Assembly (NCBI GenBank): GCA_012295275.1
Contig: CM022677.1
Span: 1,736,001-1,800,000, forward strand
Direction of reading: 5' to 3'
DNA length: 64,000 bases
Source: Chrysomallon squamiferum
Taxonomy: Eukaryota > Animalia > Mollusca
Part shown: piece after piece, positions 3,295-61,081 of the stretch
Position numbering within the stretch: position 1 is the first letter of the stretch
How the letters are laid out: every line of letters begins with the position of its first letter
Program-made: the position numbers and the translations under genes
The notes under the pieces: model-generated
The model's database searches: none
Seen by the model: only the letters and a program-made list of their open reading frames with translations
What the model was told of the DNA's origin: nothing

Positions 3295-4342
3295 TTACAC
3301 TAAAAATAACAAAGCACGTATTTGTCCGCGTGTCACACATGTACGAAGTCGTCTGTCACTGTGTTTAGATTTGTGTGACTCAGAAAATCTACAAACAAAA
3401 GAGTCTACAACAATTTCTGATTCACCTTCAAATCCACAACATGTGTCACCTCCCTTAACATTAACAAACAAGCTGTACTCAGTGTCTTTAGTAATCTTCA
3501 CTGGACGTCTGAACACGACGTCGTACCAGTAATACACGTGTTCATATCTCTGTGTCAGTGTAGACCCGTCCAGTATTTCGTCTGTTCTTGTGTCAGTGAC
3601 GAAGGCGCTGACGTCGTAGTTTTGTGGTTCATCGTCACCGTATAACTGAAATCAGCGAAGTAAAGCGTTTTTGTTGACAGAGAAAGTAATGGATTCATCT
3701 TCTTCACCAGAATATGACCAGTAACTACACGAACCAAACCTGTCTATTGTAATCTGTGTTTTACGAATCACTGCAGTTCTCATGTTTGAGTTGAAAGGTG
3801 AAACATCTTCATCTCTGCTCACCAGGTGTCTCAAAATCTTGAATCCTTCAGTCTCAGTGAGTATGTGAGTGGGTGTCACTTGTTTTACAAAATAAGTCTG
3901 ATCGAGTAATGGATAACGCACGTGCTTCACGACCTCTCCCAGTGCTTCGCGCATGTTTTTTTCATTCGTCTGTCTTCCTTGCTTCCTGCACGCGCTGTCA
4001 GCCCACTTCACAGCGGCTTCAAAAACATTTTTCTCGTCTGCTGTCAGTTCGTCTGATCGTATGATCTCAACCAGACATTCGTGACAAAGATCGGTGACTT
4101 CATCTGACTTCAGAACTTCGTCGCCATTTTCCAAAATGAAGTTCAGAGTTTTTTTCCTTAGATGATGTTCATCAAACAGGTGAGCTTGTTCCAGCACGAC
4201 GCACGCATTCCGTGACGACAACGACGACTCCAAATAGTTGACGCACTGTTCTTCCAGTGTTGTGACGATGTACTTTCTCGATAGATACAGCAGACCGGTG
4301 ACGTTGTCGCCTGTTAGGACGACGTCATCCGTGTAAAGATAT
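3295..4342 (-). pseudogene. BTB-BACK-PHR gene copy 1, coding exon 2 with premature TGA at 3652-3654 in the PHR domain
   Basis: Acceptor CAG|ATAT gives KYLYTDDVVLTGDNV; BACK motifs (VFEAAVKWA, VRYPLL) are present. GGA in copies 2/3 is TGA here (LLR*FQLYG), and the frame continues unbroken to GQIRALLFLV*. Confidence 0.82.
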
Positions 4343-4747: not shown

Positions 4748-5004
4748 TTTAAAAACTCGGTAAAAATATCTGCCTGAACATCAGGCAAGATGATGCTGTT
4801 TTGTTCGCGAAGTTCTCCCATAATCATTTTGTGGAAGACATCGCTTCTGATCATCAGGATGAAGCGATGTGCTTCTACAATTTTTTCTTCTTCCCCAACA
4901 ATAAATCTGACGTCGCTGTCTGTTCTCGTACGAAAAACGTGTTCAATACACTCCGTTAGTGTTTTCCCTGTCTGCCAACTTGAAACTTCTGCTGAGGTGG
5001 CCAT
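4748..5004 (-). CDS. BTB-BACK-PHR gene copy 1, coding exon 1 (N-terminal BTB/POZ part)
   Basis: MATSAEVSSWQTGKTL..SDVRFIVGEE..AHRFILMIRSDVFHKM..LPDVQADIFTEFLK is a canonical BTB start. Phase-2 donor AA|GTATGT after 4748; 257 nt, as in the other copies. Confidence 0.9.
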
Positions 5005-15773: not shown

Positions 15774-15897
15774 CGCCTTTACCAAAATTCCCACACAAAT
15801 TTATAGTTAATACAAAATAGATTACAAGTTGAATATGTCTGATTTGTTTTAAGCAAAGCAATAGTACGGCATATATTAAATCAAAATAAAATACAAA

Positions 15898-16119: not shown

Positions 16120-16164
<45 letters not shown>

Positions 16165-16723: not shown

Positions 16724-16758
<35 letters not shown>

Positions 16759-17780
16759 AGAAGAAGAAGAAGACGAAGAAGAAGAAGAAGAAGAAGAACA
16801 AGAACAAGACGAAGAAGAAGAGGAAGAATTAACATGTTTTAGAGATATAAATGTTTCTTCATATAAATAAAAGTACACATTATTGTAAGAAACATACAAA
16901 ATGGCATGACAGAAAAATAAATTAAAACTTTGTATATTTTTGCATATTCTATCCTTGAATATTTATCTCATATTTACAGAATGTCTGAACTTATTTACAT
17001 GAAGCGCATTAAATTTCACTAAACATATTTATATTTATCTCAGTCTTTCTTCTACCATATAATATGCAATGCTTACTAGTTGACATGATAACTAACAAGA
17101 TCTTACACTGATATTATCTAAGCTCTGTGTCTGAAGTTACCTTTGGGTGAAAGAAGATTTCCACTTGTCCACCATTTGTCACAGACCTCTGTACCAAAAT
17201 ATTCTGCCATTTAGCTTTCTTATATTTTTTATAAAAACAGTTTACACTAGTTATTGACAGCTAGCATCACGCCTTTGTGAACTGTAAATAGTCTAAAGTT
17301 ATATTTTCTTTTCTACAAAATGCAATGCATGAAAGCCAGGTGGCATTAACAAAATGTTATTTTAGAACTAAAATTCCTTTCTTTGCCAGTGTCTTATAAT
17401 AATCAGATTTATAATCAGTTTTAATATGAACGTTATACTAAATCTACTGACATAGTATTTTTATCTTGTCCCTTATCGTTGCACATTTCTCTAGAAAGTT
17501 TAACCCTATATACAATTCATTTTTAGAAAAGGAATTTGTGCGTTTCAGCAATTTTGCTTCACTGTCGGCTGACCCTAAAACTAGTGTCAGTGAAACTCAA
17601 GATAAAGCATCGGCAATCTTTTTCTAGAAGCGGACCACATAACACATGGCTCATCTTCAGGGGGGCCAAATACACTGAAAGAGTTTCTGCTAGTTTAAAG
17701 AAATAGTTTGTTGGATTTGTCAGTGAAGAAAAAACAAACAACTTTCGATAAAAAATAACTTTTGATTGCAGTAATTTTTC
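15898..17780 (+). repeat. Older, diverged copy of most of the 2.7-kb unit
   Basis: Colinear but visibly substituted match to ~7152-9015, including an expanded (GAA)n tract at 16665-16825. Confidence 0.85.
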
Positions 17781-19908
17781 CTAGAGGTGAGAAAGAACAT
17801 TTTGACCATTGTTCAAGAAGCGGTTTAACCTCATTCAACTTTGCATTAAAGTTTAATTCTGGTATTTGGCACAGATCCGTGGAAAACCGTACCCGAAGTA
17901 TTGTGAATTCTGTAGTCCATTTTAATTTTTGTTTTGAACACTTTTTTTATGAACAAATTTGTCGTTGGCTAATTTTATTATATTTGTTTTATATGTATTA
18001 ACTTTGAGACCTGATATATCAGTAAACTAGTTTAATGTTTCCACAGATGCTCACAGAGTTTTATCGTCGGCGAACTGTGAAATTTTAAATTCGCTGCCGT
18101 TTATCTCAATCCCGTATATACGTTTCTTATTTCTTACCAAGATTCCAAGAATCTCAACATAAAAGATGGAAACACAGTGAAATAACAGATCCCTTGTCTA
18201 TCTCCTGTTTCTCGTTTTAAGCGTTTAGCAATCTTACCATTTATGTATGAACACGTATCTGTTTATTTGAAAGTCCAAAGTAAGAACATGGATTTTTTTG
18301 TTAATTTTTTTTATTAAACGATGTTTTATGAAAAGCTTTTATTCCAAAGCTACAATTAATTAAGAATAACTTGAAACACTAAGGGGAAATAACTCAAGCT
18401 TTATCTTTATGCAAGTGGTAAAGGAATTATCTCCCACTGTATCAGTAAACACTTTTGTTGTCTGCTAAATGAAGACTGTGAAACACGGAGTGTTTGTTAC
18501 TCGACATTTGCTGTGAGTGGTGATCATTAAATAACAGGAGTATTGTTATTATTATTATTATTGTTGTTATTATGACTATGATTATGATTATTATTGATTT
18601 ACTAATAGGAATTAGTCTGTATGATCATGGTCTATGTTAACAAACTGTTGAAACAGAATAAACTGTATATAATATACACCGATATGCTATATTCCATTTG
18701 TAGTAGATACTTATGAAAGGTTGATTTAGAAAAAGCTAATAACAAACTCAGATGGAAGGCGGAGATCTGGATACTCAGAGCTCACGAATCTACTTTTATA
18801 TGTAGCCTCGCAGCTGTACGCGTTGTTGTCTGTGTCTGTCTCTCTGTGTGTGTAATTTAGGACTGATTATTTTTTATGTGCCTTTCATTAGACTTTTGAT
18901 AATAGTACGGCGCTACCACAGGAAGACAAAGTCCGATCACGACCTCACAAACCCCGTCAGATACCGCTGACAACGTTACCGTTCGGCCATGAAGACAACC
19001 TTGAAACGCCTGCCCAGTAACTGAGGTAATCACTGCTTTCCACAAAGCACGGCGTGTTTTGACTTTCGTTATTTCTGTGTGTATCTGTGTTTTCCTGGAA
19101 ACATGGCAATGACAAGTGTGTATTTAGAGTTGAATATTCCATTTCTGTTTGTGTCGTCTGCATAATAATTAAGCAGAGTTAGAGACAGAAGGTCTTAAGT
19201 GCATATATTAATAAGTTATTTTTACGTGTTTACATGTGTACATATCCGAGTGTCTGAGTATGTCGGTCTGTCTGTCCCTCTCTCTGTATTTCTCTCAGAA
19301 TGTTATATTTATTTATTTATTTTATATTTACTTTTTCAAAAGTAGTAAGTTATTTATGTATAACTTTGTATATATGTGTATGAAAGTTACATTTGATTGT
19401 TAATAAATGTTTCATTGTTATAAATCGGTTTAGTATTACGGTTAGGGTTAAGGTCAAGATCAAGGCTGGTATAAAATTTATCTTAATATCAGTTATCTTT
19501 CAAGATGATTTTATTTTGTTGCCAAATGTTACTAAACTTCTTAAGTCATTCCGGTTGTAAAAAATAAATATAGTTATTATTATTAAAACTTTAAAAGAAG
19601 TCTGTTATATTAACATTCATATTCATTGCAGTCTTTTTTCAGTTCATTCTGTACGTAAAGTATATAATTCAGAAATACTATGGCCAAAACGAAGACGTTT
19701 ATTACTTATAACATAAGAATACAAAAGTCTTGTTTTATTATAAAAATGTAAACCATGCCTTATACAGATTAGATATTGCTAGACATGAAATATGATTACA
19801 ACGAAGATAAAGAACTTAGATCATTTAATATGGAGCTGATGGCACTATTTCATTTTTTCTTCTTCTTCTTCTTCTTATTGTTATTGTTATTATTATTATT
19901 ATTGTTAT

Positions 19909-22903: not shown

Positions 22904-23084
22904 TAATATTAATTTCATCACATTATGATATAAAAGTTCTCAAAGCTGTATGTAACATTGAAGATTAGTAAATAAATCTGACTGTAATTTAAAACAAACG
23001 TGTTGTTATTTCTTCCTTTCAGCCTTCTTTTGTAACAACTGATTGTTAACATTGCACAACTACCAGCTGGCTTAGTATTACTAG

Positions 23085-26000
23085 AAACATTGTCACTACA
23101 GTTTATAAACTTTCTTAGTGTGCTACTACTAAAAACATTGTCACTACACATTTATAAACTTTCTTAGTGTGCTACTACTAAAAACATTGTCACTACACAT
23201 TTATAAACTTTCTTAGTGTGCTACTACTAAAAACATTGTCACTACACATTTATAAACTTTCTTAGTGTGCTACTACTAAAACATTGTCACTACACATTTA
23301 TAAACTTTCTTAGTGTGCTACTACTAAAAACATTGTCACTACACATTTATAAACTTTCTTAGTGTGCTACTACTAAAAACATTGTCACTACACATTTATA
23401 AACTTTCTTAGTGTGCTACTACTAAAAACATTGTCACTACACATTTTATAAACTTTCTTAGTGTTAGTTGTCACTACACATTTATAAACTTTCTTAGTGT
23501 GCTACTAAAAAAAATTGTCACTACACATTTATAAACTTTCTTAGTGTGCTACTACTAAAAAAACATTGTCACTACACATTTATAAACTTTCTTAGTGTGC
23601 TACTACTAAAACATTGTCACTACACATTTATAAACTTTCTTAGTGTGCTACTACTAAAAACATTGTCACTACACATTTATAAACTTTCTTAGTGTGCTAC
23701 TACTAAAAAACATTGTCACTACACATTTATAAACTTTCTTAGTGTGCTACTACTAAAAAACATTGTCACTACACATTTATAAACTTTCTTAGTGTGCTAC
23801 TACTAAAAACATTGTCACTACACATTTATAAACTTTCTTAGTGTGCTACTACTAAAAACATTGTCACTACACATTTATAAACTTTCTTAGTGTGCTACTA
23901 CTAAAAACATTGTCACTACACATTTATAAACTTTCTTAGTGTGCTACTACTAAAAACATTGTCACTACACATTTATAAACTTTCTTAGTGTGCTACTACT
24001 AAAAACATTGTCACTACACATTTATAAACTTTCTTAGTGTGCTACTACTAAAAACATTGTCACTACACATTTATAAACTTTCTTAGTGTGCTACTACTAA
24101 AAACATTGTCACTACACATTTATAAACTTTCTTAGTGTGCTACTACTAAAAACATTGTCACTACACATTTATAAACTTTCTTAGTGTGCTACTACTAAAA
24201 ACATTGTCACTACACATTTATAAACTTTCTTAGTGTGCTACTACTAAAAACTAAAAACATTGTCACTACACATTTATAAACTTTCTTAGTGTGCTACTAC
24301 TAAAACATTGTCACTACACATTTATAAACTTTCTTAGTGTGCTACTACTAAAAACATTGTCACTACAAAAACATTGTCACTACACATTGTCATAAACTTT
24401 ATAAACTTAGTAGTGCTACTACTAAAAAACATTGTCACTACACATTTATAAACTTTCTTAGTGTGCTACTACTAAAAAACATTGTCACTACACATTTATA
24501 AACTTTCTTAGTGTGCTACTACTAAAAACATTGTCACTACACATTTATAAACTTTCTTAGTGTGCTACTACTAAAACATTGTCACTACACATTTATAAAC
24601 TTTCTTAGTGTGCTACTACTAAAAACATTGTCACTACACATTTATAAACTTTCTTAGTGTGCTACTAAAAACTTGTCACTAACATTTATAAACTTTCTTA
24701 GTGTGCTAACTAAAAACATAAACTTTCTTAGTTGTCACTACACATTTATAAACTTTCTTAGTGTGCTACTACTAAAAACATTGTCACTACACATTTATAA
24801 ACTTTCTTTAGTGTGTGCTACTACTAAAAAAAACATTGTCACTACACATTTATAAACTTTTCTTAGTGTGCTACTACTAAAAAAACATTGTCACTACACA
24901 TTTATAAACTTTCTTAGTGTGCTACTAAACTACTTTATAAACTTAGTGTGCTACTACTAAAAAACATTGTCACTACACATTTATAAACTTTCTTAGTGTG
25001 CTACTATAAAAAACATTGTCACTACACATTTATAAACTTTCTTAGTGTGCTACTACTAAAAAAACATTGTCACTACACATTTATAAACTTTCTTAGTGTG
25101 CTACTACTAAAAACATTGTCACTACACATTTATAAACTTTCTTAGTGTGCTACTACTAAAACATTGTCACTACACATTTATAAACTTTCTTAGTGTGCTA
25201 CTACTAAAACATTGTAAAACATTTACATACACACTTTTAGTAGTGTGCTACTACTAAAAACATTGTCACTACACATTTATAAACTTTCTTAGTGTGCTAC
25301 TACTAAAAACATTGTCACTACACATTTATAAACTTTCTTAGTGTGCTACTACTAAAAACATTGTCACTACACATTTATAAACTTTCTTAGTGTGCTACTA
25401 CTAAAAACATTGTCACTACACATTTATAAACTTTCTTAGTGTGCTACTACTAAAAAAACTTTCTTAGTTGTCACTCACACATTTATAAACTTTCTTAGTG
25501 TGCTACTACTAAAAACATTGTCACTACACATTTATAAACTTTCTTAGTGTGCTACTACTAAAAACATTGTCACTATAAACTTTCTTAGTGTTAGTTTGTC
25601 ACTATAAACTTTCTTAGTGTGCTACTACTAAAAACATTGTCACTACACATTTATAAACTTTCTTAGTGTGCTACTACTAAAAACATTGTCACTACACATT
25701 TATAAACTTTCTTAGTGTGCTAAAAAAACATTGTCACTACACATTTATAAACTTTCTTAGTGTGCTACTACTAAAAACATTGTCACTACACATTTATAAA
25801 CTTTCTTAGTGTGCTACTACTAAAAACATTGTCACTACACATTTATAAACTTTCTTAGTGTGCTACTACTAAAAACATTGTCACTACAAAAACATTGTCA
25901 CTACACATTTATAAACTTTCTTAGTGTGTCTAAAACATTGTCACTACACATTTATAAACTTTCTTAGTGTGCTACTACTAAAAACATTGTCACTACACAT

Positions 26001-29000
26001 TTATAAACTTTTAGTAGTGCTACTACTAAAACATTGTCAAACATTTATAAACTTTCTTAGTCACTACTAAAACATTGTCACTACACATTTATAAACTTTC
26101 TTAGTGTGCTACTACTAAAAAACACATTGTCACTACACATTTTTCTTAAACTTTCTTAGTTTCTTAGTGTGCTACTACTAAAAACATTGTCACTACACAT
26201 TTATAAACTTTCTTAGTGTGCTACTACTAAAAAACATTGTCACTACACATTTATAAACTTTCTAGTGTGCTACTACTTGTCACTACACAAAAAACATTGT
26301 CACTACACATTGTCACTTTTATAAACTTTCTTAGTGTGCTACTACTAAAAACATTGTCACTACACATTTATAAACTTTCTTAGTGTGCTACTACTAAAAA
26401 CATTGTCACTACACATTTATAAACTTTCTTAGTGTGCTACTACTAAAACATTGTCACTACACATTTATAAACTTTCTTAGTGTGCTACTACTAAAAACAT
26501 TGTCACTACACATTTATAAACTTTCTTAGTGTGCTACTACTAAAAACATTGTCACTACACATTTATAAACTTTCTTAGTGTGCTACTACTAAAAACATTG
26601 TCACTACACATTTATAAACTTTCTTAGTGTGCTACTACTAAAAACATTGTCACTACACATTTATAAACTTTCTTAGTGTGCTACTACTAAAACATTGTCA
26701 CTACACATTTATAAACTTTCTTAGTGTGCTACTACTAAAAACATTGTCACTACACATTTATAAACTTTCTTAGTGTGCTACTACTAAAAACATTGTCACT
26801 ACACATTTATAAACTTTCTTAGTGTGCTACTACTAAAAACATTGTCACTACACATTTATAAACTTTCTTAGTGTGCTACTACTAAAAAACATTGTCACTA
26901 CACATTTATAAACTTTCTTAGTGTGCTACTACTAAAAACATTGTCACTACACATTTATAAACTTTCTTAGTGTGCTACTACTAAAAACATTGTCACTACA
27001 CATTTATAAACTTTCTTAGTGTGCTACTACTAAAAACATTGTCACTACACATTTATAAACTTTCTTAGTGTGCTACTACTAAAAAAACATTGTCACTACA
27101 CATTTATAAACTTTCTTAGTGTGCTACTACTAAAAACATTGTCACTACACATTTATAAACTTTCTTAGTGTGCTACTACTAAAAACATTGTCACTACACA
27201 TTTATAAACTTTCTTAGTGTGCTACTACTTTACACATTTAGTGTGTGCTACTACTAAAAACATTGTCACTACACATTTATAAACTTTCTTAGTGTGCTAC
27301 TACTAAAAACATTGTCACTACACATTTATAAACTTTCTTAGTGTGCTACTACTAAAAACATTGTCACTACACATTTATAAACTACTAAAAACATTGTCTT
27401 TATAAACTTTCTTAGTGTGCTACTACTAAAAACATTGTCACTACACATTTATAAACTTTCTTAGTGTGCTACTACTAAAAATTGTCACATTGTCACTACA
27501 CATTTATAAACTTTATAAACTTAGTGTGCTACTACTAAAAAACATTGTCACTACACATTTATAAACTTTTTAGTGTGCTACTACTAAAAACATTGTCACT
27601 ACACATTTATAAACTTTCTTAGTGTGCTACTACTAAAAACATTGTCACTACACATTTATAAACTTTCTTAGTGTGCTACTACTAAAAACATTGTCACTAC
27701 ACATTTATAAACTTTCTTAGTGTGCTACTACTAAAACATTGTCACTACACATTTATAAACTTTCTTAGTGTGCTACTACTAAAAACATTGTCACTACACA
27801 TTTATAAACTTTCTTAGTGTGCTACTACTAAAAACATTGTCACTACACATTTATAAACTTTCTTAGTGTGCTACTACTAAAAAAACATTGTCACTACACA
27901 TTTATAAACTTTCTTAGTGTGCTACTACTAAAAAAACATTGTCACTACACATTTATAAACTTTCTTAGTGTGCTACTACTAAAAACATTGTCACTACACA
28001 TTTATAAACTTTTTAGTGTGCTACTACTAAAAACATTGTCACTACACATTTATAAACTTTCTTAGTGTGCTACTACTAAAAAAACATTGTCACTACACAT
28101 TTATAAACTTTCTTAGTGTGCTACTACTAAAAACATTGTCACTACACATTTTATAAACTTTCTTAGTGTGCTACTACTAAAAACATTGTCACTACACATA
28201 AACTTTATAAACTACTAAAAATTTGTCACTACACATTTATAAACTTAAAAACATTGTGCTACTACTAAAAACATTGTCACTACACATTTATAAACTTTCT
28301 TAGTGTGCTACTACTAAAAACATTGTCACTACACATTTATAAACTTTCTTAGTGTGCTACTACTAAAAACATTGTCACTACACATTTATAAACTTTCTTA
28401 GTGTGCTACTACTAAAAACATTGTCACTACACATTTATAAACTTTCTTAGTGTGCTACTACTAAAAAAACATTGTCACTACACATTTATAAACTTTCTTA
28501 GTGTGCTACTACTAAAAACATTGTCACTACACATTTATAAACTTTCTTAGTGTGCTACTACTAAAAACATTGTCACTACACATTTATAAACTTTCTTAGT
28601 GTGCTACTACTTAGTGTGCTACTACTAAAAACATTGTCACTACACATTTATAAACTTTCTTAGTGTGCTACTACTAAAAAAAAAACATTGTCACTACACA
28701 TTTATAAACTTTCTTAGTGTGCTACTACTAAAAACATTGTCACTACACATTTATAAACTTTCTTAGTAGTGTGCTACTACTAAAAACATTGTCACTACAC
28801 ATTTATAAACTTTCTTAGTGTGCTACTACTAAAAAAAAAACATTGTCACTACACATTTATAAACTTTCTTAGTGTGCTACTACTAAAAACATTGTCACTA
28901 CACATTTATAAACTTTCTTAGTGTGCTACTACTAAAAACATTGTCACTACACATTTATAAACTTTCTTAGTGTGCTACTACTAAAAACATTGTCACTACA

Positions 29001-32000
29001 CATTTATAAACTTTCTTAGTGTGTCACTAAAAACATTGTCACTACACATTTATAAACTTTCTTAGTGTGCTACTACTAAAAAACATTGTCACTACTACAT
29101 TTATAAACTTTTTCTTAGTGTGCTACTACTAAAAACATTGTCACTACACATTTATAAACTACTACTAAAAAACATTGTCACTACACATTTATAAACTTTC
29201 TTAGTGTGCTACTACTAAAAACATTGTCACTACACATTTATAAACTTTCTTAGTGTGCTTGTCACTACTAAAAACATTGTCACTAAAAACATTGTCACAC
29301 ATTTTATAAACTTTCTTAGTGTGCTACTACTAAAAACATTGTCACTACACATTTATAAACTTTCTTAGTGTGCTACTACTAAAAACATTGTCACTACACA
29401 TTTATAAACTTTCTTAGTGTGCTACTACTAAAAACATTGTCACTACACATTTATAAACTTTCTTAGTGTGCTACTACTAAAAACATTGTCACTACACATT
29501 TATAAACTTTCTTAGTGTGCTACTACTAAAAACATTGTCACTACACATTTATAAACTTTCTTAGTGTGCTACTACTAAAAACATTGTCACTACACATTTA
29601 TAAACTTTCTTAGTGTGCTACTACTAAAAACATTGTCACTTTATAAACTTTATAAACTTTTGTCACTACACATTTATAAACTTAGTGTGTCACTACACAT
29701 TTATAAACTTTCTTAGTGTGCTACTACTAAAAACATTGTCACTACACATTTATAAACTTTCTTAGTGTGCTTACTAAAAAAAATTGTCACTACTAAAAAC
29801 ATTGTTACTACACTACTATTTTGTCACTACAAACTAAACTTTTTAGTGTGCTACTACTAAAAACATTGTCACTACACATTTATAAACTTTTTAGTGTGTG
29901 TACTACTACTAAAAAACATTGTCACTACACATTTATAAACTTTCTTAGTGTGCTACTACTAAAAACATTGTCACTACACATTTATAAACTTTCTTAGTGT
30001 GCTACTACTAAAAACATTGTCACTACACATTTATAAAGTGTGCATTGTCACTTGTCACATTTATAAACTTTTTCTTAGTGTGCTACTACTAAAAAAAAAC
30101 ATTGTCACTACACATTTATAAACTTTCTTAGTGTGCTACTACTAAAAACATTGTCACTACACATTTATAAACTTTCTTAGTGTGCTACTACTAAAAACAT
30201 TGTCACTACACATTTATAAACTTTCTTAGTGTGCTACTACTAAAAACATTGTCACTACACATTTATAAACTTTCTTAGTGTGCTACTACTAAAAACATTG
30301 TCACTACACATTTATAAACTTTCTTAGTGTGCTACTACTAAAAACATTGTCACTACACATTTATAAACTTTCTTAGTGTGCTACTACTAAAACATTGTCA
30401 CTACACATTTATAAACTTTCTTAGTGTGCTACTACTAAAAACATTGTCACTACAGATTTATAAACTTTCTTAGTGTGCTACTACACATTTATAAACTTTC
30501 TTAGTGTGCTACTACTAAAAACATTGTCACTACACATTTATAAACTTTCTTAGTGTGCTACTACTAAAAACATTGTCACTACACATTTATAAACTTTCTT
30601 AGTGTGTGCTACTACTAAAAACATTGTCACTACACATTTATAAACTTTCTTAGTGTGCTACTACTAAAAACATTGTCACTACACATTTATAAACTTTCTT
30701 AGTGTGCTACTACTAAAAACATTGTCACTACACATTTATAAACTTTCTTAGTGTGCTACTACTAAAAACATTGTCACTACACATTTATAAACTTTCTTAG
30801 TGTGTACTACTACTAAAAAACATTGTCACTAAAAACATTGTCACTACACATTTATAAACTTTCTTAGTGTGCTACTACTAAAAACATTGTCACTACACAT
30901 TTATAAACTTTCTTAGTGTGCTACTACTAAAAACATTGTCACTACACATTTATAAACTTTCTTAGTGTGCTACTACTAAAAACATTGTCACTACACATTT
31001 ATAAACTTTCTTAGTGTGCTACTACTAAAAACATTGTCACTACACATTTATAAACTTTCTTAGTGTGCTACTACTAAAAACATTGTCACTACACATTTAT
31101 AAACTTTCTTAGTGTGCTACTACTAAAAACATTGTCACTACACATTTATAAACTTTCTTAGTGTGCTACTACTAAAAACATTGTCACTACACATTTATAA
31201 ACTTTCTTAGTGTGCTACTACTAAAAACATTGTCACTACACATTTATAAACTAGTAAAAACTAAAAACATTGTCACTACACATTTATAAACTTTCTTAGT
31301 GTGCTACTACTAAAAAAACATTGTCACTACACATTTATAAACTTTCTTAGTGTGCTACTACTAAAAACATTGTCACTACACATTTATAAACTTTCTTAGT
31401 GTGCTACTACTAAAAACATTGTCACTACACATTTATAAACTTTCTTAGTGTGCTACTACTAAAAACATTGTCACTACACATTTATAAACTTTCTTAGTGT
31501 GCTACTACTAAAAACATTGTCACTACACATTTATAAACTTTCTTAGTTTATAAACTTTCTTAGTGTGCTACTACTAAAAACATTGTCACTACACATTTAT
31601 AAACTTTCTTAGTGTGCTACTACTAAAAACATTGTCACTACACATTTATAAACTTTCTTAGTGTGCTACTACTAAAAACATTGTCACTACACATTTATAA
31701 ACTTTCTTAGTGTGCTACTACTAAAAACATTGTCACTACACATTTATAAACTTTCTTAGTGTGCTTACTACTAAAAACATTGTCTAAAAACATTTATAAA
31801 CTATAAACTTTCTTAGTGTGCTACTACTAAAAACATTGTCACTACACATTTATAAACTTTCTTAGTGTGCTACTACTAAAAACATTGTCACTACACATTT
31901 ATAAACTTTCTTAGTGTGCTACTACTAAAAAAATTGTCACTACACATTTATAAACTTTTCTTAGTGTGCTACTACTAAAAAAATTGTCACTACACATTTA

Positions 32001-35000
32001 TAAACTTTCTTAGTGTGCTACTACTAAAAACATTGTCACTACACATTTATAAACTTTCTTAGTGTGCTACTACTAAAAACATTGTCACTACACATTTATA
32101 AACTTTCTTAGTGTGCTACTACTAAAAACATTGTCACTACACATTTATACACTTTCTTAGTGTGCTACTACTAAAAACATTGTCACTACACATTTATAAA
32201 CTTTCTTAGTGTGCTACTACTAAAAACATTGTCACTACACATTTATAAACTTTCTTAGTGTGCTACTACACATTGTACTACTAAAAAAAACATTGTCACT
32301 ACACATTTATAAACTTTCTTAGTGTGCTACTACTAAAAAAAAAAACATTGTCACTACACATTTATAAACTTTCTTAGTGTGCTACTACTAAAAACATTGT
32401 CACTACACATTTATAAACTTTCTTAGTGTGCTACTACTAAAAACATTGTCACTACACATTTATAAACTTTCTTAGTGTGCTACTACTAAAAACATTGTCA
32501 CTACACATTTATAAACTTTCTTAGTGTGCTACTACTAAAAACATTGTCACTACACATTTATAAACTTTCTTAGTGTGTGCTACTACTAAAAACATTGTCA
32601 CTACACATTTATAAACTTTCTTAGTGTGCTACTACTAAAAACATTGTCACTACACATTTATAAACTTTCTTAGTGTGCTACTACTAAAAACATTGTCACT
32701 ACACATTTATAAACTTTCTTAGTGTGCTACTACTAAAAACATTGTCACTACACATTTATAAACTTTCTTAGTGTGCTACTACTAGAAACATTGTCACTAC
32801 ACATTTATAAACTTTCTTAGTGTGCTACTACTAAAAACATTGTCACTACACATTTATAAACTTTCTTAGTGTGCTACTACTAAAACATTGTCACTACTTT
32901 AAAAACATTGTCACTACTACTAAAACATTGTCACTTTCTTAGTGTGCTACTACTAAAAACATTGTCACTACACATTTATAAACTTTCTTAGTGTGCTACT
33001 ACTAAAAAAACATTGTCACTACACATTTATAAACTTTCTTAGTGTGCTACTACTAAAAACATTGTCACTACACATTTATAAACTTTCTTAGTGTGCTACT
33101 ACTAAAACATTGTCACTACACATTTATAAACTTTCTTAGTGTGCTACTACTAAAAACATTGTCACTACACATTTATAAACTTTCTTAGTGTGCTACTACT
33201 AAAAAAATTGTTGTCACTACACATTTATAAACTTTCTTAGTGTGCTACTACTAAAAAACACACATTGTCACTTTCTTACATTGTCATTTTATAAACTTTC
33301 TTAGTGTGCTACTACTAAAAACATTGTCACTACACATTTATATAAACTTTCTTAGTGTGCTACTACTAAAAACATTGTCACTACACATTTATAAACTTTC
33401 TTAGTGTGCTACTACTAAAAACATTGTCACTACACATTTATAAACTTTCTTAGTGTGCTACTACTAAAAAAAACATTGTCACTACACATTTATAAACTTT
33501 CTTAGTGTGCTACTACTAAAAACATTGTCACTACACATTTATAAACTTTCTTAGTGTGCTACTATAAAAACATTGTCACTACACATTTATAAACTTTCTT
33601 AGTGTGCTACTACTAAAAACATTGTCACTACACATTTATAAACTTTCTTAGTGTGCTACTACTAAAAACATTGTCACTACACATTTATAAACTTTCTTAG
33701 TGTGCTACTACTAAAAACATTGTCACTACACATTTATAAACTTTCTTAGTGTGCTACTACTAAAAACATTGTCACTACACATTTATAAACTTTCTTAGTG
33801 TGCTACTACTAAAAACATTGTCACTACACATTTATAAACTTTCTTAGTGTGCTACTACTAAAAACATTGTCACTACACATTTATAAACTTTCTTAGTGTG
33901 CTACTACTAAAAACATTGTCACTACACATTTATAAACTTTCTTAGTGTGCTACTACTAAAAAAAACATTGTCACTACACATTTATAAACTTTCTTAGTGT
34001 GCTACTACTAAAAACATTGTCACTACACATTTATAAACTTTCTTAGTGTGCTACTACTAAAAAAAAACATTGTCACTACACATTTATAAACTTTCTTAGT
34101 GTGCTACTACTAAAAACATTGTCACTACACATTTATAAACTTTCTTAGTGTGCTACTACTAAAAACATTGTCACTACACACATTTATAAACTTTCTTTAG
34201 TGTGCTACTACTAAAAAACATTGTCACTACACATTTATAAACTTTCTTAGTGTGCTACTACTAAAAACATTGTCACTACACATTTATAAACTTTCTTAGT
34301 GTGCTACTACTAAAAAACATTGTCACTACACATTTATAAACTTTCTTAGTGTGCTACTACTAAAAACATTGTCACTACACATTTATAAACTTTCTTAGTG
34401 TGCTACTACTAAAAAACATTGTCACTACACATTTATAAACTTTCTTAGTGTGCTACTACTAAAAACATTGTCACTACACATTTATAAACTTTCTTAGTGT
34501 GCTACTACTAAAAAAACATTGTCACTACACATTTATAAACTTTCTTAGTGTGCTACTACTAAAAACATTGTCACTACACATTTATAAACTTTCTTAGTGT
34601 GCTACTACTAAAAACATTGTCACTACACATTTATAAACTTTCTTAGTGTGCTACTACTAAAAACATTGTCACTACACATTTATAAACTTTCTTAGTGTGC
34701 TACTACTAAAAAACATTGTCACTACACATTTATAAACTTTCTTAGTGTGTGCTACTACTAAAAACATTGTCACTACACATTTATAAACTTTCTTAGTGTG
34801 CTACTACTAAAAAACATTGTCACTACACATTTATAAACTTTCTTAGTGTGCTACTACTAAAAAAACATTGTCACTACACATTTATAAACTTTCTTAGTGT
34901 GCTACTACTAAAAACATTGTCACTACACATTTATAAACTTTCTTAGTGTGCTACTACTAAAAACATTGTCACTACACATTTATAAACTTTCTTAGTGTGC

Positions 35001-36920
35001 TACTACTAAAAACATTGTCACTACACATTTATAAACTTTCTTAGTGTGCTACTACTAAAAACATTGTCACTACACATTTATAAACTTTCTTAGTGTGTGC
35101 TACTACTAAAAACATTGTCACTACACATTTTATAAACTTTTAGTGTACACACATTTATAAACTTTCTTAGTGTACTACTACTAAAAACATTGTCACTACA
35201 CATTTATAAACTTTCTTAGTGTGCTACTACTAAAAACATTGTCACTACACATTTATAAACTTTCTTAGTGTGCTACTACTAAAAACATTGTCACTACACA
35301 TTTATAAACTTTCTTAGTGTGCTACTACTAAAAACATTGTCACTACACTTTTATAAACTTTCTTAGTGTGCTACTACTAAAAACATTGTCACTACACATT
35401 TATAAACTTTCTTAGTGTGCTACTACTAAAAACATTGTCACTACACATTTATAAACTTTCTTAGTGTGCTACTACTAAAAACATTGTCTACACAAAAAAT
35501 TGTCTTACTACTAAAAACATTGTCACTACACATTTATAAACTTTCTTAGTGTGCTACTACTAAAAACATTGTCACTACACATTTATAAACTTTCTTAGTG
35601 TGCTACTACTAAAAACATTGTCACTACACATTTATAAACTTTCTTAGTGTGCTACTACTAAAAACATTGTCACTACACATTTATAAACTTTCTTAGTGTG
35701 CTACTACTAAAAACATTGTCACTACACATTTATAAACTTTCTTAGTGTGCTACTACTAAAAAACATTGTCACTACACATTTATAAACTTTCTTAGTGTGC
35801 TACTACTAAAAACATTGTCACTACACATTTATAAACTTTCTTAGTGTGCTACTACTAAAAACATTGTCACTACACATTTATAAACTTTCTTAGTGTGCTA
35901 CTACTAAAAAAAAATTGTCACTACACATTTATAAACTTTCTTAGTGTGCTACTACTAAAAACATTGTCACTACACATTTATAAACTTTCTTAGTGTGCTA
36001 CTACTAAAACATTGTCACTACACATTTATGTCACTGTGCTACTACTAAAACACACATTTTATAAACTTTCTTAGTGTGCTACTACTAAAAACATTGTCAC
36101 TACACATTTATATAAACTTTCTTAGTGTGCTACTACTAAAAAAACATTGTCACTACACATTTATAAACTTTCTTAGTGTGCTACTACTAAAAAACATTGT
36201 CACTACACATTTATAAACTTTCTTAGTGTGCTACTACTAAAAAACATTGTCACTACACATTTATAAACTTTCTTTAGTGTGCTACTACTAAAAACATTGT
36301 CACTACACATTTATAAACTTTCTTAGTGTGCTACTACTAAAACATTGTCACTACACATTTATAAACTTTCTTAGTGTGCTACTACTAAAAACATTGTCAC
36401 TACACATTTATAAACTTTCTTAGTGTGCTACTACTAAAAACATTGTCACTACACATTTATAAACTTTCTTAGTGTGCTACTACTAAAAACATTGTCACTA
36501 CACATTTATAAACTTTCTTAGTGTGCTACTACTAAAACATTGTCACTACACATTTATAAACTTTCTTAGTGTGCTACTACTAAAAACATTGTCACTACAC
36601 ATTTATAAACTTTCTTAGTGTGCTACTACTAAAAACATTGTCACTACACATTTATAAACTTTCTTAGTGTGCTACTACTAAAAACATTGTCACTACACAT
36701 TTATAAACTTTCTTAGTGTGCTACTACTAAAAACATTGTCACTACACATTTATAAACTTTCTTAGTGTGCTACTACTAAAAACATTGTCACTACACATTT
36801 ATAAACTTTCTTAGTGTGCTACTACTAAAAACATTGTCACTACACATTTATAAACTTTCTTAGTGTGCTACTACTAAAACATTGTCACTACACATTATGT
36901 TTATAAACTTTCTTAGTGTA
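23085..36920 (+). repeat. 49-bp satellite DNA array, ~13.8 kb, roughly 280 monomers
   Basis: Monomer ACATTGTCACTACACATTTATAAACTTTCTTAGTGTGCTACTACTAAAA. Very homogeneous, with variable A-run length and local scrambles. Confidence 0.98.
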
Positions 36921-40233: not shown

Positions 40234-40449
40234 AAAGCAATGAGATGTATCTGTTTGACACAAATCAGTCCATTATAAAATTTCAAATCAAAGGAACTGT
40301 CTATGACGTCATCACCGCTGTCTGACGTCATCAGAAAAACATAAACAAATCAATAAATCAATAAGTAAACAAATAAATAAATAAATAAATACAAATATTA
40401 GGCCAGTGATGACTAAAAGTGACAGTGTTTGAACGATGTTGTTTTTACA

Positions 40450-41520
40450 CTAAAAAAATAACAAAGCAGGTATTTGTCCGTCTGTCACACATGTACGAAG
40501 TTGTCTGTCACTGTGTTTAGATTTGTGTGACTCAGAAAATCTACAAACAAAAGAGTCTACAACAATTTCTGATTTACCTTTAACTCCACACAATGAGTCT
40601 CCTCCCTTAACATTAACAAACAAGCTGTACTCAGTGTCTTTAGTAATCTTCACTGGACGTCTGAACACGACGTGTCATACACGTCAGACACGACGTTTCA
40701 TATCTCTGTGTCAGTGTAGACCCGTCCAGTATTTCGTCTGTTCTTGTGTCAGTGACGAAGGCGCTGACGTCGTAGTTTCGTGGTTCAGGGTAACCGTACA
40801 ACTGAAATCCGCGAAGTAAAGCGTTTTTGTTGACAGAGAAAGTAATGGCTTCATCTTCTTTACCAGAACATGTCCAGGAAGCAAACAATCCAACATCATA
40901 CCACTATACATACCAAAAACCTGTTTATTGTAATCTGTGTTTTCATCATTGCAGTTCTCTTGTTTGAGTTGAAAGGTGAAACATCTTCATCACTGCTCAC
41001 CAGGTGTCTCAAAATCTTGAGTTCTTCTGTGTCAGTGAGTATGTGAGTGGGTGTCACGTGTTTTACAAAATACGTCTGATCGAGTAATGGATAACGCACG
41101 TGCTTCACGACCTCTCCCAGTGCATCGCGCATGTTTTTTTCATTCGTCTGTCTCCCTTGCTTCCTGCACGCGCTGTCAGCCCACTTCACAGCGGCTTCAA
41201 AAACATTTTTCTCGTCTGCTGTCAGTTCGTCTGATCGTACGATCTCAACCAGACATTCGTGACAAAGATCGGTGACTTCATCTGACTTCAGAACTTCGTC
41301 GCCATTTTTCAAAATGTAGTCCAGAGATTTTTTCCTTAGATCATGTTCATCAAACCGGTGAGCTTGTTCCAGCACGACGCACGCATTCCGTGACGACAAC
41401 GACGACTCCAAATATTTCACGCACTGTTCTTCCAGTGTCGTGACGATGTACTTCCTCGATAGATACAGCAGACCGGTGACGTTGTCGCCTGTTAGGACGA
41501 CGTCATCCGTGTAAAGATAT
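40450..41520 (-). pseudogene. BTB-BACK-PHR gene copy 2, coding exon 2 with frameshifts (~40900-40920, ~40670-40700) and an altered C-terminus
   Basis: Homology is split over three ORFs (40896-41420, 40640-40888, 40450-40668); single acceptor CAG|ATAT at 41520. Either a true pseudogene or consensus indel errors. Confidence 0.75.
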
Positions 41521-41835: not shown

Positions 41836-42092
41836 TTTAAAAACTCGGTAAAAATATCTGCCTCAACATCAGGCAAGATGATGCTGTTTTGTTCGCGAAG
41901 TTCTCCCATAAACATTTTGTGGAAGACATCGCTTCTGATCATCAGGATGAAGCGATGTGCTTCTACAATTTTTTCTTCTTCCCCAACAACAAATCTGACG
42001 TCGCTGTCTGTTCTCGTACGAAAAACGTGTTCAATACACTCCGTTAGTGTTTTCCCTGTCTGCCAACTTGAAACTTCTGCTGAGGTGGCCAT
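41836..42092 (-). CDS. BTB-BACK-PHR gene copy 2, coding exon 1
   Basis: Same 257-nt exon and AA|GTATGT donor as copies 1 and 3. Confidence 0.88.
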
Positions 42093-43892: not shown

Positions 43893-44249
43893 CATCCCTA
43901 CGGCTGATTTTGCTGAAGCCTGGAGCCCATGTGATCTGTTTTGTTTTTGTTTGAGTGCTAAAAGTTAACACTATGTATACCACAATCGCTCCATGTGCGT
44001 CACTCAAATGAATTTGGTGTCCGCCCGGGAAGTCGACAAATCTATTTTGTTTGGTACGTAGAATAATAAAAGTCCCGGGACGTGGACATTTCTAATTGTT
44101 TGTAAGTTCTGCTTTGCAGTTACGAAACGCCTTTTTTGTTAACAACCAGATGAGAACCCTGAAGTAGACTGTTGTGTGATTACTGTCCTTTGTAGATTCG
44201 TAATTCGGCTTCCATTAATTGAGTCGGTACCTGAGTCTTTTAGTTATTT

Positions 44250-49056
<4,807 letters not shown>

Positions 49057-49256
49057 NNNNNNNNNNNNNNNNNNNNNNNNNNNNNNNNNNNNNNNNNNNN
49101 NNNNNNNNNNNNNNNNNNNNNNNNNNNNNNNNNNNNNNNNNNNNNNNNNNNNNNNNNNNNNNNNNNNNNNNNNNNNNNNNNNNNNNNNNNNNNNNNNNNN
49201 NNNNNNNNNNNNNNNNNNNNNNNNNNNNNNNNNNNNNNNNNNNNNNNNNNNNNNNN
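49057..49256. other. Assembly gap (200 N)
   Basis: Run of N. Confidence 1.
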
Positions 49257-49569
49257 ATGACTGCATAATATAACATTTGAACTTTATTACACACAGTCAG
49301 AGAGGTGAGCATTTCATTTTATATCAAAAACAGAGTACAATGATCACTATCTTCACGTGTGTGAAAGTGACTGAAGGAAATGCAGTGTTATGTAAATAAA
49401 TGATTCATGTTCAGAATAGAATCTGTCGCTTCAATTCAGAGAGAGATAAAACCTGAATTACATAAGTCTAAAAATATCGTATTCATAACAATTGTGGCGT
49501 TTATACAAGAACAGTTGTGTTTAACAGAGACGATTATTTCAATGTGTCTGTTGGACTGAGGCAATTTAA

Positions 49570-49617
<48 letters not shown>

Positions 49618-50315
49618 TATTATTATTATTATTATCATCATCATCATCATCATCATCATCATGATAATGACGTTTAAGAGTTGTAAAATTAAAATGAACT
49701 CAAATAGGTCACCGCTAGGTGTCATGGGAAAAAGTTAAAGTGATCTGATCTCGATTCTATAGCACTTCTTCTTTTAGAAAATAAAGGTAATAAATGATAA
49801 TTTCACACGTCATAAAACATGGTATAGTAAAAGTTCTGTTCACATTTAAGCTGATCTTTGATCTCTGGCTGAAAAGTAGAGAAAACTAGTGAAAATGTTC
49901 ACACAGACAGACAGACTGTATTTCAAATTTGTCTCATATTCGACACAATACAAAATATTGGTGGATTATAGAATATTCCAGGTAATAAATGTGGTTAATT
50001 GCTGATGATTTTTTAATTTAATAAACTGTTTAAAAAAAAGAGAGAAAAAAAAAAAAAAAAAACACATAAATAAATAAATTAATAAATAAATAAATCAAAC
50101 ATATATCTATTCACATTTATCAGCAATGTCAGTTTAAAATTGAGGAGTTCAAAGAAATTTTAAAAATTTGAAGTAATCACAAGAACAAGAAAGATCAGAC
50201 AAGTTCTCGGCTCACTTGAACAAATGCAACAAAAAAACTAATTGTTTGACTGAGAGGATCTGGCACATTAAACAGCAACCAGTATGTTCGATTAATGGTA
50301 AATTAATGATGAGAA

Positions 50316-54830
<4,515 letters not shown>

Positions 54831-55055
54831 GAAAGTAATCGATTGTTAGAAATTATCTCAGGTTGATTATTTTTTTACATAAAAATGTTTAGTATTTGAA
54901 ATATTTCTATGTACAGGTCATAGCTAGATGTGAATATAGAAAACTGATCACTGCAATGTGAGGCTGCGTATTAGAAACATTTTAAAATTATATTTCGTAT
55001 GAGGTTATTATCATTATTATTATTATTATCATTATTATTTGTTTTTACTGAAAAC

Positions 55056-55312
55056 ATGGCCACCTCAGCAGAAGTTTCAAGTTGGCAGACAGGGAAAACA
55101 CTAACGGAGTGTATTGAACACGTTTTTCGTACGAGAACAGACAGCGACGTCAGATTTGTAGTTGGGGAAGAAGAAAAAATTGTAGAAGCACATCGCTTCA
55201 TCCTGATGATCAGAAGCGATGTCTTCCACAGAATGATTATGGGAGAACTTCGCGAACAAAACAGCATCATCTTGCCTGATGTTGAGGCAGATATATTTAC
55301 AGAGTTTTTAAA
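55056..55312 (+). CDS. BTB-BACK-PHR gene copy 3, coding exon 1
   Basis: ATG at 55056 (AACATGG); BTB N-terminal part; donor AA|GTATGT at 55312/55313. Confidence 0.92.
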
Positions 55313-55318
55313 GTATGT

Positions 55319-55353
<35 letters not shown>

Positions 55354-55499
55354 TGGAAATACATGTACACACACACACACGCACACGCACACAGAAACAC
55401 AGACACACACAGAGACACAGGTACGAATATACAAACCGACACGAACGTTGATAACAATACAGGCTTTGTTAATAATTTAATTATTTTCTAATTAAATAA

Positions 55500-55974
55500 T
55501 CTCACATAATTATCTCTCGTTTGAAGTCTTACTCTACTTCTTTTACACAGATATCTTTATTAACTGATCTCACATAGTTATCTCACATTTTAAAGTCTTA
55601 CTCTACTTCTTTTACACAGATATCTTTATTAACTGATCTCACATAGTTATCTCACATTTTAAAGTCTTACTCTACTTCTTTTACACAGATATCTTTATTA
55701 ACTGATCTCACATAGTTATCTCACATTTTATAGTCTTACTCTACTTCTTTTACACAGATATCTTTATTAACTGATCTCACATTGTTATCTCTCGTTTTAA
55801 AGTCTTACTCTACTTCTTTTACACAGATATCTTTATTAACTGATCTCACATTGTTATCTCTCGTTTTAAAGTCTTACTCTACTTCTTTTACACAGATATC
55901 TTTATTAACTAATCTCACATAGTTATCTCACATTTTAAAGTCTTACTCTACTTCTTTTACACAGATATCTTTAC
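55500..55974 (+). repeat. 69-bp minisatellite containing the 3' splice acceptor (7 acceptors)
   Basis: The G of ACACAG falls at 55550, 55619, 55688, 55757, 55826, 55895 and 55964. Confidence 0.95.
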
Positions 55975-57012
55975 ACGGATGACGTCGTTCTAACAGGCGA
56001 CAACGTCACCAGTCTGCTGTATCTATCGAGGAAGTACATCATCACGACACTGGAAGAACAGTGCGTCAACTATTTGGAGTCGTCGTTGTCGTCACGGAAT
56101 ACGTGCGTCGTGCTGGAACAAGCTCACCTATTTGATGAACATCATCTAAGGAAAAAAACTCTGGACTTCATTTTGAAAAATGGCGACGAAGTTCTGAAGT
56201 CGGATGAAGTCACCGATCTTTGTCACGAATGTCTGGTTGAGATCGTACGATCAGACGAACTGATAGCAGACGAGAAAAATGTTTTCGAAGCCACTGTGAA
56301 GTGGGCTGACAGCGCGTGCAGGAAGCAAGGAAAACAGACGAGTGAAAAAAACATGCGCGAAGCACTGGGAGAGGTCGTGAAGCACGTGCGTTATCCATTA
56401 CTCGATCAGACGTATTTTGTAAAACACGTGACACCCACTCACATACTCACTGAGGCTGAAGGATTCAAGATTTTGAGACACCTGGAGAGCAGTGAGGAAG
56501 ATGTTTCACCTTTTAACTCAAACAAGAGAACTGCAATGATTACACAGATTACAATAGACAGGCTTGGTTCGTACGATGATTTTCTTTGTGACTGGACATA
56601 TTCTGGTGAAGAAGATGACGCCATTACTTTCTCTGTCAACAAAAACGCTTTACTTCGCGGATTTCAGTTGTACGGTCACAACACAAACTACGACGTCAGC
56701 GCCTTCGTCACTGTCACAAGAACAGACGAAATACTGGACAGGTCTACACTGACACAGAGATATGAACACGTGTCTGGCATGTATGACGTCCTGTTCAGAC
56801 GTCCAGTGAAGATTACTAAAGACACTGAGTACAGCTTGTTTGTTAATGTTAAGGGAGGATACTCATGGAGTGGACGTGAAGGTAAATCAGAAATTGTTGT
56901 AGACTCTTTTGTTTGTAGATTTTCTGAGTCACACAAATCTAAACACAGTGACAGACAACTTCGTACACGTGTGACAGACGGACAAATAGGTGCTTTGTTA
57001 TTTTTAGTGTAA
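55965..57012 (+). CDS. BTB-BACK-PHR gene copy 3, coding exon 2; spliced product 434 aa, BTBD1/2/3/6-like Cullin-3 substrate adaptor
   Basis: Splicing gives LKYLYTDDVVLTGDNV, then a BACK domain and PHR motifs (W-T-Y-S-G..DAITFSVNK, GFQLYG, FRRPVKI, GQIGALLF). 257+1048=1305 nt, open. Confidence 0.92.
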
Positions 57013-59406: not shown

Positions 59407-60226
59407 ATACACCTACTGATACATGTGTGATTTTGTGTGTGTGTGTGTGTGTGTGAGTGTGTGTGTGCACACAGTCGAAATATATTTTATCTTCCGCCTT
59501 GTCACTTATGTGATGAAAAGCCGAGGAACTGCGGGATTAACTGTCACCTTGGCAGTGCTTGGTGTTACGGACTTTTGTCTCGCAGAACGATCTGCCGAGT
59601 TTTTCTTATTAGGTGAGAAAGGTGGAACGATCGCTGTGGATTGAACGCGCTGGGTAACTGACTAATCACACACACACACAGACACACACACAGACAAACA
59701 CATACACACACATACACACACACACAGACACATACAAACACATACACACACAATGATGATGTTGGTAATAATAAACTTTGATGTTACTCCAAAGCAACCA
59801 TCTAGTCTTCTATAAATCTGTTTTAAAGGACGTTTTTCTAAAACAATGTATTGATACAAACTACTGTGATGCATCGCTTAACGTTTCATGTACACGCCCT
59901 TTGCCCATAAAAATAACAAGAAAATAACGGTAATAATGATGCTGCAGCTGCTGCTGATGATGATGATGCGGAAGATAATGACAAACAAATACATAAAAGA
60001 AGAAAAAACAAAAACAACATCAACAACAAATTAGCTATTGGGACAATTCAGAAAACCAACTCTTATAAATTAAAAAGGCGATAATATAGATTTTTAATTC
60101 CTATCGATTATCATTATACAAATAAATTACTATTTCCTTCAGATGTATTGTTGCTCTTTAAGGAAAAGCACAGAAGGGCAGGTAAGTCTGGAGTCATATG
60201 ATTTAAAAACGAAATAGAAAGTCGAG

Positions 60227-60681
60227 ATGTCTTTTGCAGTTGTGATTGTGTTTTTCTCGTCACTTGATTTATCTTTCTCCAAACTACTGGCCGGGTTCGT
60301 TCTGCCGCACGGCGGAATTGCTCTGGATCCGAAACATTTCAATACAACCAACCACACAGCAAAACAAGAAGCGTGGAAAATTCACGAAACCTGCAAAACT
60401 GTCGATCAGACGATTCTGTCTTTATCGCCCGATATACTTTTTCTGAGCACGCCCCATGGTATTTCTGACATAAATAACTTTGTGTTCTATTTAAATCCCA
60501 CAGGAGAAGGCTTTGCAGATACTGATAATTGCAACTGTCCTCCTTGTTGTTATAAAGTAACCGCTAATCTTTCTAGCCAACTTTTGGAAGACATCGTAAA
60601 TAAATTTGGCTCTGCTCGGAATATTTCGGGATTAAGCGGTTATGGTCCACCCGGTAAAAGCGATGAAGCATTTCCACTGAG
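60227..60681 (+). CDS. Coding exon 1 of a LigB/class III extradiol dioxygenase (Memo/LigB-fold)-like protein with possible signal peptide
   Basis: GFVLPHGG and PDILFLSTPHG match the two N-terminal His motifs of LigB-type proteins; hydrophobic N-terminus; donor AG|GTGAGA. Confidence 0.78.
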
Positions 60682-61081
60682 GTGAGAAAAAACATGCATG
60701 TAAAAATTAGCATAAACACTTCTTTTTTAAATTAGCATAGACTAATAATACTGACAGGAAGGAAACATTATCCTATAAAAATATAGTTATTGATAAACCA
60801 ATTTCTGTTTTCGTTTAATGCAAAGTTTCACAAAAGACTGAGGACCCACAATATGCCGTTTTCGAAACGTACTGTACATAAAAAATATATATTTATTTCC
60901 AATCCTATTTATAATATATTATATAGAAATGTTTTTATATATTTTATCACAAAACTGACATTATTTATAAATACTCTTGTAAAGTAGAGTCATACATTAT
61001 TTTCTTTTTTAAAATTTCGTTTTCTTGTATTCATTTTGTTACATATTTATTTATTTATTTATTTATTTGGCACATATTAAG

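Follow-up and report, generated by a model that had tools for sequence, protein, structure and literature searches.

The window, the whole 64-kb stretch of DNA that was analysed, contains three copies of one gene with two coding exons, whose product carries a BTB, a BACK and a PHR domain; a translated search of the 64 kb found no fourth copy. Copy 3, on the forward strand, is the sole intact copy of the three and encodes 434 aa. Its coding exon 1 (55056..55312), which specifies the N-terminal part of BTB, starts with an ATG at 55056 and is followed by a GT donor at 55313. A phase 2 intron (55313..55964) separates it from coding exon 2 (55965..57012), which specifies the end of BTB, BACK and PHR. 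The preliminary description of this DNA, made by reading the sequence, had proposed this architecture, and the Pfam matches agree with it (PF00651, E 1.8e-10; PF07707, E 1.1e-15; PF08005, E 7.4e-21). The intron contains a CA microsatellite and a 69-bp tandem repeat of 6.9 copies that ends at the acceptor; the repeat spans 55491-55973 in copy 3 and recurs at 4334-4540 in copy 1 (2.6 units). Since the repeat unit includes the splice acceptor and the first exon bases, several look-alike acceptors lie ahead of the real one. In an RNA run, one contig from a family member has the end of exon 1 fused to position 55965, which shows that the modelled splicing takes place in at least one member of the family.

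The other two copies lie on the reverse strand and are broken. Copy 1 (coding exon 1, 4748..5004; coding exon 2, 3295..4342) has an in-frame TGA at 3652-3654. This stop codon, which had been overlooked when copy 1 was treated as a usable copy, lies inside PHR, so that copy 1 is no intact comparator. Copy 2 (coding exon 1, 41836..42092; coding exon 2, 40445..41520) is frameshifted at three places within exon 2: at the third of the variable PHR patches described below (V3), as had been recognized before, and also at the first (V1) and at the 3' end, which had been missed.

Copies 2 and 3 are set head to head by an inverted duplication (44247..54833), whose arms, at 44247-49056 and 50316-54833, are about 4.5 kb long and 97.65% identical over 4475 aligned bases. 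With repeats masked, the arms, as the upstream flank of copies 2 and 3, differ at 48 of 3474 positions (1.38%). An assembly gap of 200 N (49057-49256) lies near the centre, and the duplication could be either a true palindrome, permitting arm-to-arm conversion, or a mis-join. Kilobases of near-identical flank had previously been noted for copies 1 and 2 and are present, with differences of 0.17% downstream and 1.45% upstream when simple repeats are masked; the inverted upstream flank of copies 2 and 3 has to be added to them, and the upstream flank of copy 2 is common to both of the other copies. The short downstream flank of copy 3 is about 15% different from those of copies 1 and 2. Much of the identity among the copies is explained by recent duplication. 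The further suggestion that conversion homogenises everything outside the patches is unsupported, since copies 1 and 2 differ more in their coding sequence beyond the patches than in their non-coding sequence (32/1158 vs 20/1990 differences, p 0.0004, the two counts being masked differently). Because of this excess, and because copy 2 shares its upstream flank with both of the others, we infer from the sequence that exons have probably been exchanged with other family members, rather than simply homogenised.

Elsewhere in the window, a 49-bp satellite with a strong GC skew forms an array of about 14 kb (23079-36919); indels between its units amount to about 10%, and the array has the look of unpolished long-read sequence. 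At 6647-15217 there are three tandem units of about 2.7 kb that are 98-99% identical, and a partial fourth, more diverged, follows at 15893-17783; a convincing coding frame was not seen. A 155-residue open frame (P0102) at 60218-60682 on the forward strand contains PHG motifs and weakly resembles a subunit of a LigB-type dioxygenase (E 0.5); it has no Pfam match and is likely an exon of a neighbouring gene. On the reverse strand, the frame at 52744-53190 has Cys/His-rich, knuckle-like motifs and also lacks a Pfam match; it resembles a retroelement gag remnant.

The differences among the three gene copies are concentrated in five short patches of the PHR domain. In copy 3, V1 (56560..56601, forward strand, as are all five) is the first PHR loop, which varies in both length and sequence. 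V2 (56671..56691) is the turn after a conserved YG, V3 occupies 56767..56793, V4 (56854..56886) consists of variable residues among three conserved glycines, and V5 (56965..56991) consists of variable residues around a conserved T..GQ. The same patches, V1 to V5, are found on the reverse strand at 3712-3741, 3616-3642, 3514-3540, 3421-3453 and 3316-3342 in copy 1, and at 40868-40900, 40772-40798, about 40670-40700, 40573-40605 and 40468-40494 in copy 2. All 14 patch peptides quoted in the preliminary description occur where it placed them. In pairwise comparisons of the three copies, nucleotide differences amount to 1.9-2.9% in BTB, 3.8-4.9% in BACK, 1.8-2.4% in the PHR framework and 19-23% in the patches, which contain 18-27 gap columns besides these substitutions. 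Thus, the reported contrast between near-identical BTB and BACK regions (95-99% identity) and radically different patches is real, with the correction that identity is lower in BACK than in the PHR framework. Copies 1 and 3 are separated by three indels, of -2, +4 and -2 codons, which were also as reported and all keep the frame.

The clustering of variable columns can be tested by permutation. Four segments of 30 nt, at V1-V4, hold at least 8 variable columns each, a result reached in 0/5000 permutations; at a threshold of 6 columns the excess is weak (234/5000), and V5 is too sparse for a peak at any threshold. All five columns in which the three copies have three different bases lie inside patches. 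Between the patches, the PHR signature residues (W, D, YG, three G, T and GQ) are retained. The transition/transversion ratio of the patches is not different from that of the rest (p 0.14-0.49), and there is therefore no sign of a special mutator.

Family-wide variability can be seen in public read sets. Nine public runs of one organism contain 26-44% of the sampled words of the exon; runs with a word share of 0.05 or less (X10-X13) were left out of contig placement. In four runs, 1405, 712, 428 and 227 contigs match copy 3, and 996, 713, 397 and 196 match 601 bases of the copy 2 PHR exon; these counts show only that the family is large, and summed contig depth is not usable as copy number. 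Along the PHR exon the summed depth falls to an interior minimum at exactly five places, V5, V4, V3, V2 and V1, in 4/4 runs, most deeply at V1, although such a dip could also arise if the sequence of the reference copy is merely private. However, alternative letters at the patch sites are carried by many short-read contigs from seven runs, and the loose ends at V1 agree at only 0.60-0.74 when contigs of the DNA runs are compared. The five patches vary family-wide.

These observations bear directly on the possibility that consensus or polishing errors in a long-read assembly created the differences among the patches, a counter-explanation that the preliminary description itself had raised. The window does contain indel-rich repeat arrays, and the frameshifts of copy 2 resemble errors of this kind; the bases inserted at V3 and at the 3' end are absent from many family contigs, and these two frameshifts are therefore either private to copy 2 or errors. 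However, copies 1 and 3 differ by substitutions and in-frame indels, contigs from the seven runs vary at the same places, and the depth dips at all five patches in 4/4 runs imply that the patches are not assembly errors. We consider it highly improbable that the patches arose in this way; assembly error may instead hold for the frameshifts and the stop codon. Several of the private bases of copy 3 are found in no contig of four runs, and V1 of copy 2 is likewise apparently absent. Since the contigs were filtered, this is only a weak hint that individuals may hold different repertoires and that others may lack copies 2 and 3.

Each domain of the predicted protein has solved relatives. The BTB match (PF00651) on exon 1 is above the gathering score, and the best solved match is the BTB domain of BTBD6 (2vkp). 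The modelled BACK region aligns to the BTB-BACK of KLHL11 (Z 14.0, rmsd 2.9, 169 aligned). BTB-BACK-PHR (BBP) proteins bind Cullin-3 through BTB plus the 3-box helices. In the predicted protein, an L-x-E stretch, a kind of motif with a role in Cullin-3 docking, can be aligned with that of BTBD6, and the model has helices following BTB, so far as a putative docking site is concerned. The PHR model, built on 77 sequences, has a mean pLDDT of 95 and aligns with human BTBD2 PHR (3no8; Z 22.5, rmsd 1.4, 145 residues aligned) and, at Z 21, with both MYCBP2 PHR domains (3gbw, 3hwj). The next structural matches, which include lectin-like sandwiches, have Z scores of 9.2 or less. Because antiparallel strands alternate along the PHR model, V1-V5 are predicted to lie together at the end of the sandwich that is remote from the termini leading to BACK. 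Four turns that hardly vary between copies 1 and 3 (residues 37-39, 63-73, 96-100 and 125-126) would lie at the opposite end. W22, D30, G49, G109, G115, G118, T146, G151 and Q152 are kept in 84-100% of 65 distant PHR domains. The interleaving of variable residues with these kept ones in the sequence suggests a variable rim around a kept core.

Other PHR proteins offer comparisons for this end of the domain. In PHR1 of RPM-1/MYCBP2, a flat conserved surface is made of apical loops. The PHR domains of MYCBP2, Highwire and RPM-1 have the same fold as the PHR of the window (Z 21); however, their surface is conserved, whereas the loops of the window that probably correspond are diversified. A review describes a flat conserved surface of PHR1 as a likely protein-interaction site (PMC4806438). 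Human BTBD1, BTBD2, BTBD3 and BTBD6, members of the BBP family, have the same three domains in the same order, and their signature residues are kept in the window. A survey of this family gives four to seven genes per metazoan genome and proposes PHR as the substrate module (PMC1257465); in contrast, the family of the window is large, loop-variable and subject to fast turnover. For vertebrate Btbd6, a preprint reports that BTB-BACK binds Cullin-3 while PHR points away from the cullin, that Plzf is recruited through BTB and not PHR, and that the protein acts in neural differentiation (bioRxiv 10.1101/575910). Consequently, the premise of the preliminary description that substrates are recruited through the C-terminal domain is weaker than stated, Plzf, the best-studied substrate of Btbd6, being taken by BTB.

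Whether selection has shaped the patches was examined from codon changes. When copies 1 and 3 are compared, the differences in PHR number 33 nonsynonymous and 4 synonymous, vs 19 and 11 in BTB plus BACK (Fisher p 0.018); pN vs pS over the whole PHR, taken alone, is not significant (p 0.062). For the same pair, the patches have a dN of 0.30 vs a dS of 0.11, with borders drawn after the differences were seen. In a site-wise codon model of the three copies, M2a was compared with M1a, and a signal was obtained in PHR: over 434 codons M2a is favoured at p 1e-4, and over 410 codons, without V1, V2 and the linker indel, at p 0.007. About 2% of the codons are assigned to a class whose omega is far above 1, and 7/7 flagged codons lie within V2-V5, including codon 390 in V4 (posterior 0.99). 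Positive selection in PHR is thus supported by a site model, one that has three sequences, two of them broken, and in which conversion and multi-base changes are uncorrected and could inflate the signal. BTB plus BACK contains no positively selected class; its omega across the three copies is 0.72, and constraint there is therefore weak.

Neutral birth-and-death could produce part of this pattern. In a redundant, partly pseudogenised family, loops would drift and gain multi-base changes or conversion tracts, and patches, once diverged, would resist homogenisation. Multi-base codon changes and conversion can mislead site models, and multi-base changes are in fact enriched in the patches (7/23 vs 1/37, p 0.004). 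That two of the three copies are broken, that BTB plus BACK has so high an omega, that dS between copies 1 and 3 is 0.11 in the patches and 0.014 in the framework, and that coding sequence is more diverged than the flanks all agree with such a history. However, the divergence of the patches, 19-23%, is far above that of local non-coding sequence (0.2-1.5% in the three longer flank comparisons), the indels between copies 1 and 3 keep the frame in 3/3 cases, the signature residues are kept, and the loops at the opposite end of the sandwich do not drift. Neutral drift would also have to account for the recurrence of the same sites in separately expanded clades and for their conservation in an orthologue control, as described next. 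Overall, neutral birth-and-death seems an unlikely, though not a negligible, explanation.

Patch borders were fixed from the window before other lineages were compared; the Gigantopelta and abalone groups were picked by eye from match lists, of which they are a subset, and the cluster representatives are at least 10% different by construction. In 11 Gigantopelta paralogues the difference is 0.56 in the patches vs 0.31 in the framework (p 4e-7; 3/156 shifted masks as high), and in 16 abalone paralogues it is 0.63 vs 0.38 (p 4e-7; 0/160 shifted masks as high). An abalone group of 10 (0.29 vs 0.21, p 0.15) and another of 6 (0.42 vs 0.33, p 0.069) give no significant excess. Among three abalone orthologues, apparently one per species, the patches are instead the better conserved part (0.087 vs 0.197 in the framework); a second orthologue set from abalone, a pair of sequences, has a patch excess (0.30 vs 0.13) that comes mostly from a long V1 insertion. 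Per-site variability is correlated among the four expanded sets (rho 0.22-0.40, 6/6 pairs, p below 0.01) and uncorrelated between these sets and the small three-orthologue control (rho -0.15 to 0.02, 0/4 pairs). V3 is variable in the window and in some clades and not in others, the latter including Gigantopelta clade A and abalone clade H1.

The closest named proteins are Gigantopelta aegis paralogues called "BTBD2/3/6-like", with about 50% identity (10/11 matches); the database names of the relatives are mixed, being BTBD2-, BTBD3- or BTBD6-like. In a quick tree of 35 rows, none of them vertebrate, the window copies nest inside the Gigantopelta radiation with a support of 100, apart from the abalone clades; the animal is therefore likely a peltospirid or a related vent snail. 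Close family members were not found in the protein collection, where the best matches are 37-56% identical, nor by a PHR-only search of proteins of 88-280 aa; the JGI metagenomes yielded no relative, by protein search or by a 32-base pattern. Of 111 matches to one abalone protein, most are Haliotis paralogues; abalones have BTB-BACK-PHR clusters of their own, and the expansion is therefore not vent-specific. Many of the abalone BTB-BACK paralogues (P0159-P0197) are full-length yet have no precomputed PHR match, and their C-terminal domain may have diverged past Pfam detection or been replaced. A 1790-residue protein (P0017) carries three tandem PHR-like domains with loop motifs that are nearly the same in each repeat. 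Birth-and-death expansion is apparent in the window, with three copies in 64 kb, two of them broken, and beyond it in the hundreds of variant contigs and in separate peltospirid and abalone radiations.

The window genes very likely belong to the published peltospirid "BTBD6" expansion. One genome paper counts 56 copies in Chrysomallon squamiferum and 35 in G. aegis and reads them as a nervous-system adaptation (PMC7736800), a reading of adaptation that a later preprint repeats (10.1101/2025.10.31.685756); section 8 of a G. aegis paper lists the family among immunity-related expansions, without a test (PMC7895826). The duplicates described there are clustered, as in the window, and the passages of these two papers (PMC7736800, PMC7895826) cover copy number and tandem layout, with no mention in them of hypervariability, selection or broken copies. 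The literature searched, mostly outside subscription journals and genome-paper supplements, yielded nothing on hypervariable PHR loops or on selection in PHR. A BTBD6-named gene appears in a table of the differentially expressed genes of a Biomphalaria-Schistosoma study (PMC13619432), which is too slight to count. What appears to be new is the five-patch hypervariability and the signal of selection in PHR; the BBP family and the snail expansion were already known.

Selection could be real and yet be directed at proteins of the animal itself, such as those of nerve, biomineral or stress pathways, with one endogenous substrate for each paralogue. The published neural reading of the peltospirid expansion (PMC7736800) and the role of vertebrate Btbd6 in neural differentiation speak for own-protein targets. 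However, stable endogenous targets would favour long-lived orthologues; the radiations are instead species-specific, copies are broken, and there is the hint that other individuals lack copies 2 and 3. Shallow-water abalones have expanded the family too, so that the pattern is neither vent- nor nerve-specific, and the one untested listing of the family as immunity-related (PMC7895826, section 8) also points elsewhere. Own-protein targets are, in our judgement, improbable.

The reading that we prefer, with a probability of roughly 0.55, is that these genes encode predicted Cullin-3 adaptors of a large, recently duplicating family, in which the five PHR patches are the target-binding face and have been diversified by selection so as to recognise foreign or selfish proteins and send them to ubiquitin-mediated destruction. 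The process begins with duplication, which creates near-identical copies, some of which break (one of three is intact in the window). BTB, BACK and the PHR framework change slowly, while the five patches gain substitutions and in-frame indels and the signature residues are kept. By analogy with vertebrate Btbd6, the BTB-BACK half may dimerise and dock on Cullin-3. In the model, a conserved pocket at the β-sandwich end distal to BACK would be rimmed by the patches, such that each variant paralogue could present its own binding face and take its own peptide. Family members may reshuffle the patches by exchanging exon segments, and intracellular microbes, viruses or mobile elements would drive the diversification through an arms race. 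The diversifying repertoire of the preliminary description has held up as far as family-wide patch variability, recurrence in gastropod expansions and an amino-acid excess in PHR are concerned. Its label for the patches, "CDR-like", is no more than an analogy; it is germline-type gene copies that encode them, and the variants that were seen are separate genomic copies.

Similar repertoires are known among other cullin adaptors. The primary study of nematode and plant F-box and MATH-BTB adaptors reportedly found that the half which binds targets evolves fast and the half which binds the cullin is steadier. These families are birth-and-death expansions of cullin adaptors for which pathogen defence is hypothesised (PMC1866355). 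Unlike them, the window genes use a PHR β-sandwich, belong to a different phylum and confine their change to five short patches; for both, the link to defence is indirect.

A bolder proposal is that gastropods, and perhaps other invertebrates, have repeatedly made PHR into an intracellular antibody-like scaffold. The germline would then hold well over a hundred Cullin-3 adaptors, each with a conserved pocket ringed by five hypervariable loops, and this repertoire would be reshuffled by gene conversion, differ between individuals and mark proteins of intracellular symbionts, pathogens or mobile elements for destruction. We put this forward tentatively, as a possibility that is open to considerable doubt.

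The vent-snail "BTBD6" expansion owes its published interpretation, a nervous-system adaptation, to its name. A recognition arms race fits the sequence pattern better than the neural reading does, and abalones share the pattern, so that it is no vent speciality. The natural variation marks the likely ligand-binding face of the PHR domain, and the existence of near-identical paralogues that differ in five patches makes loop-swap and pull-down tests straightforward. If the recognition reading is true, the PHR domain of these snails would be a new receptor scaffold for invertebrate intracellular immunity.
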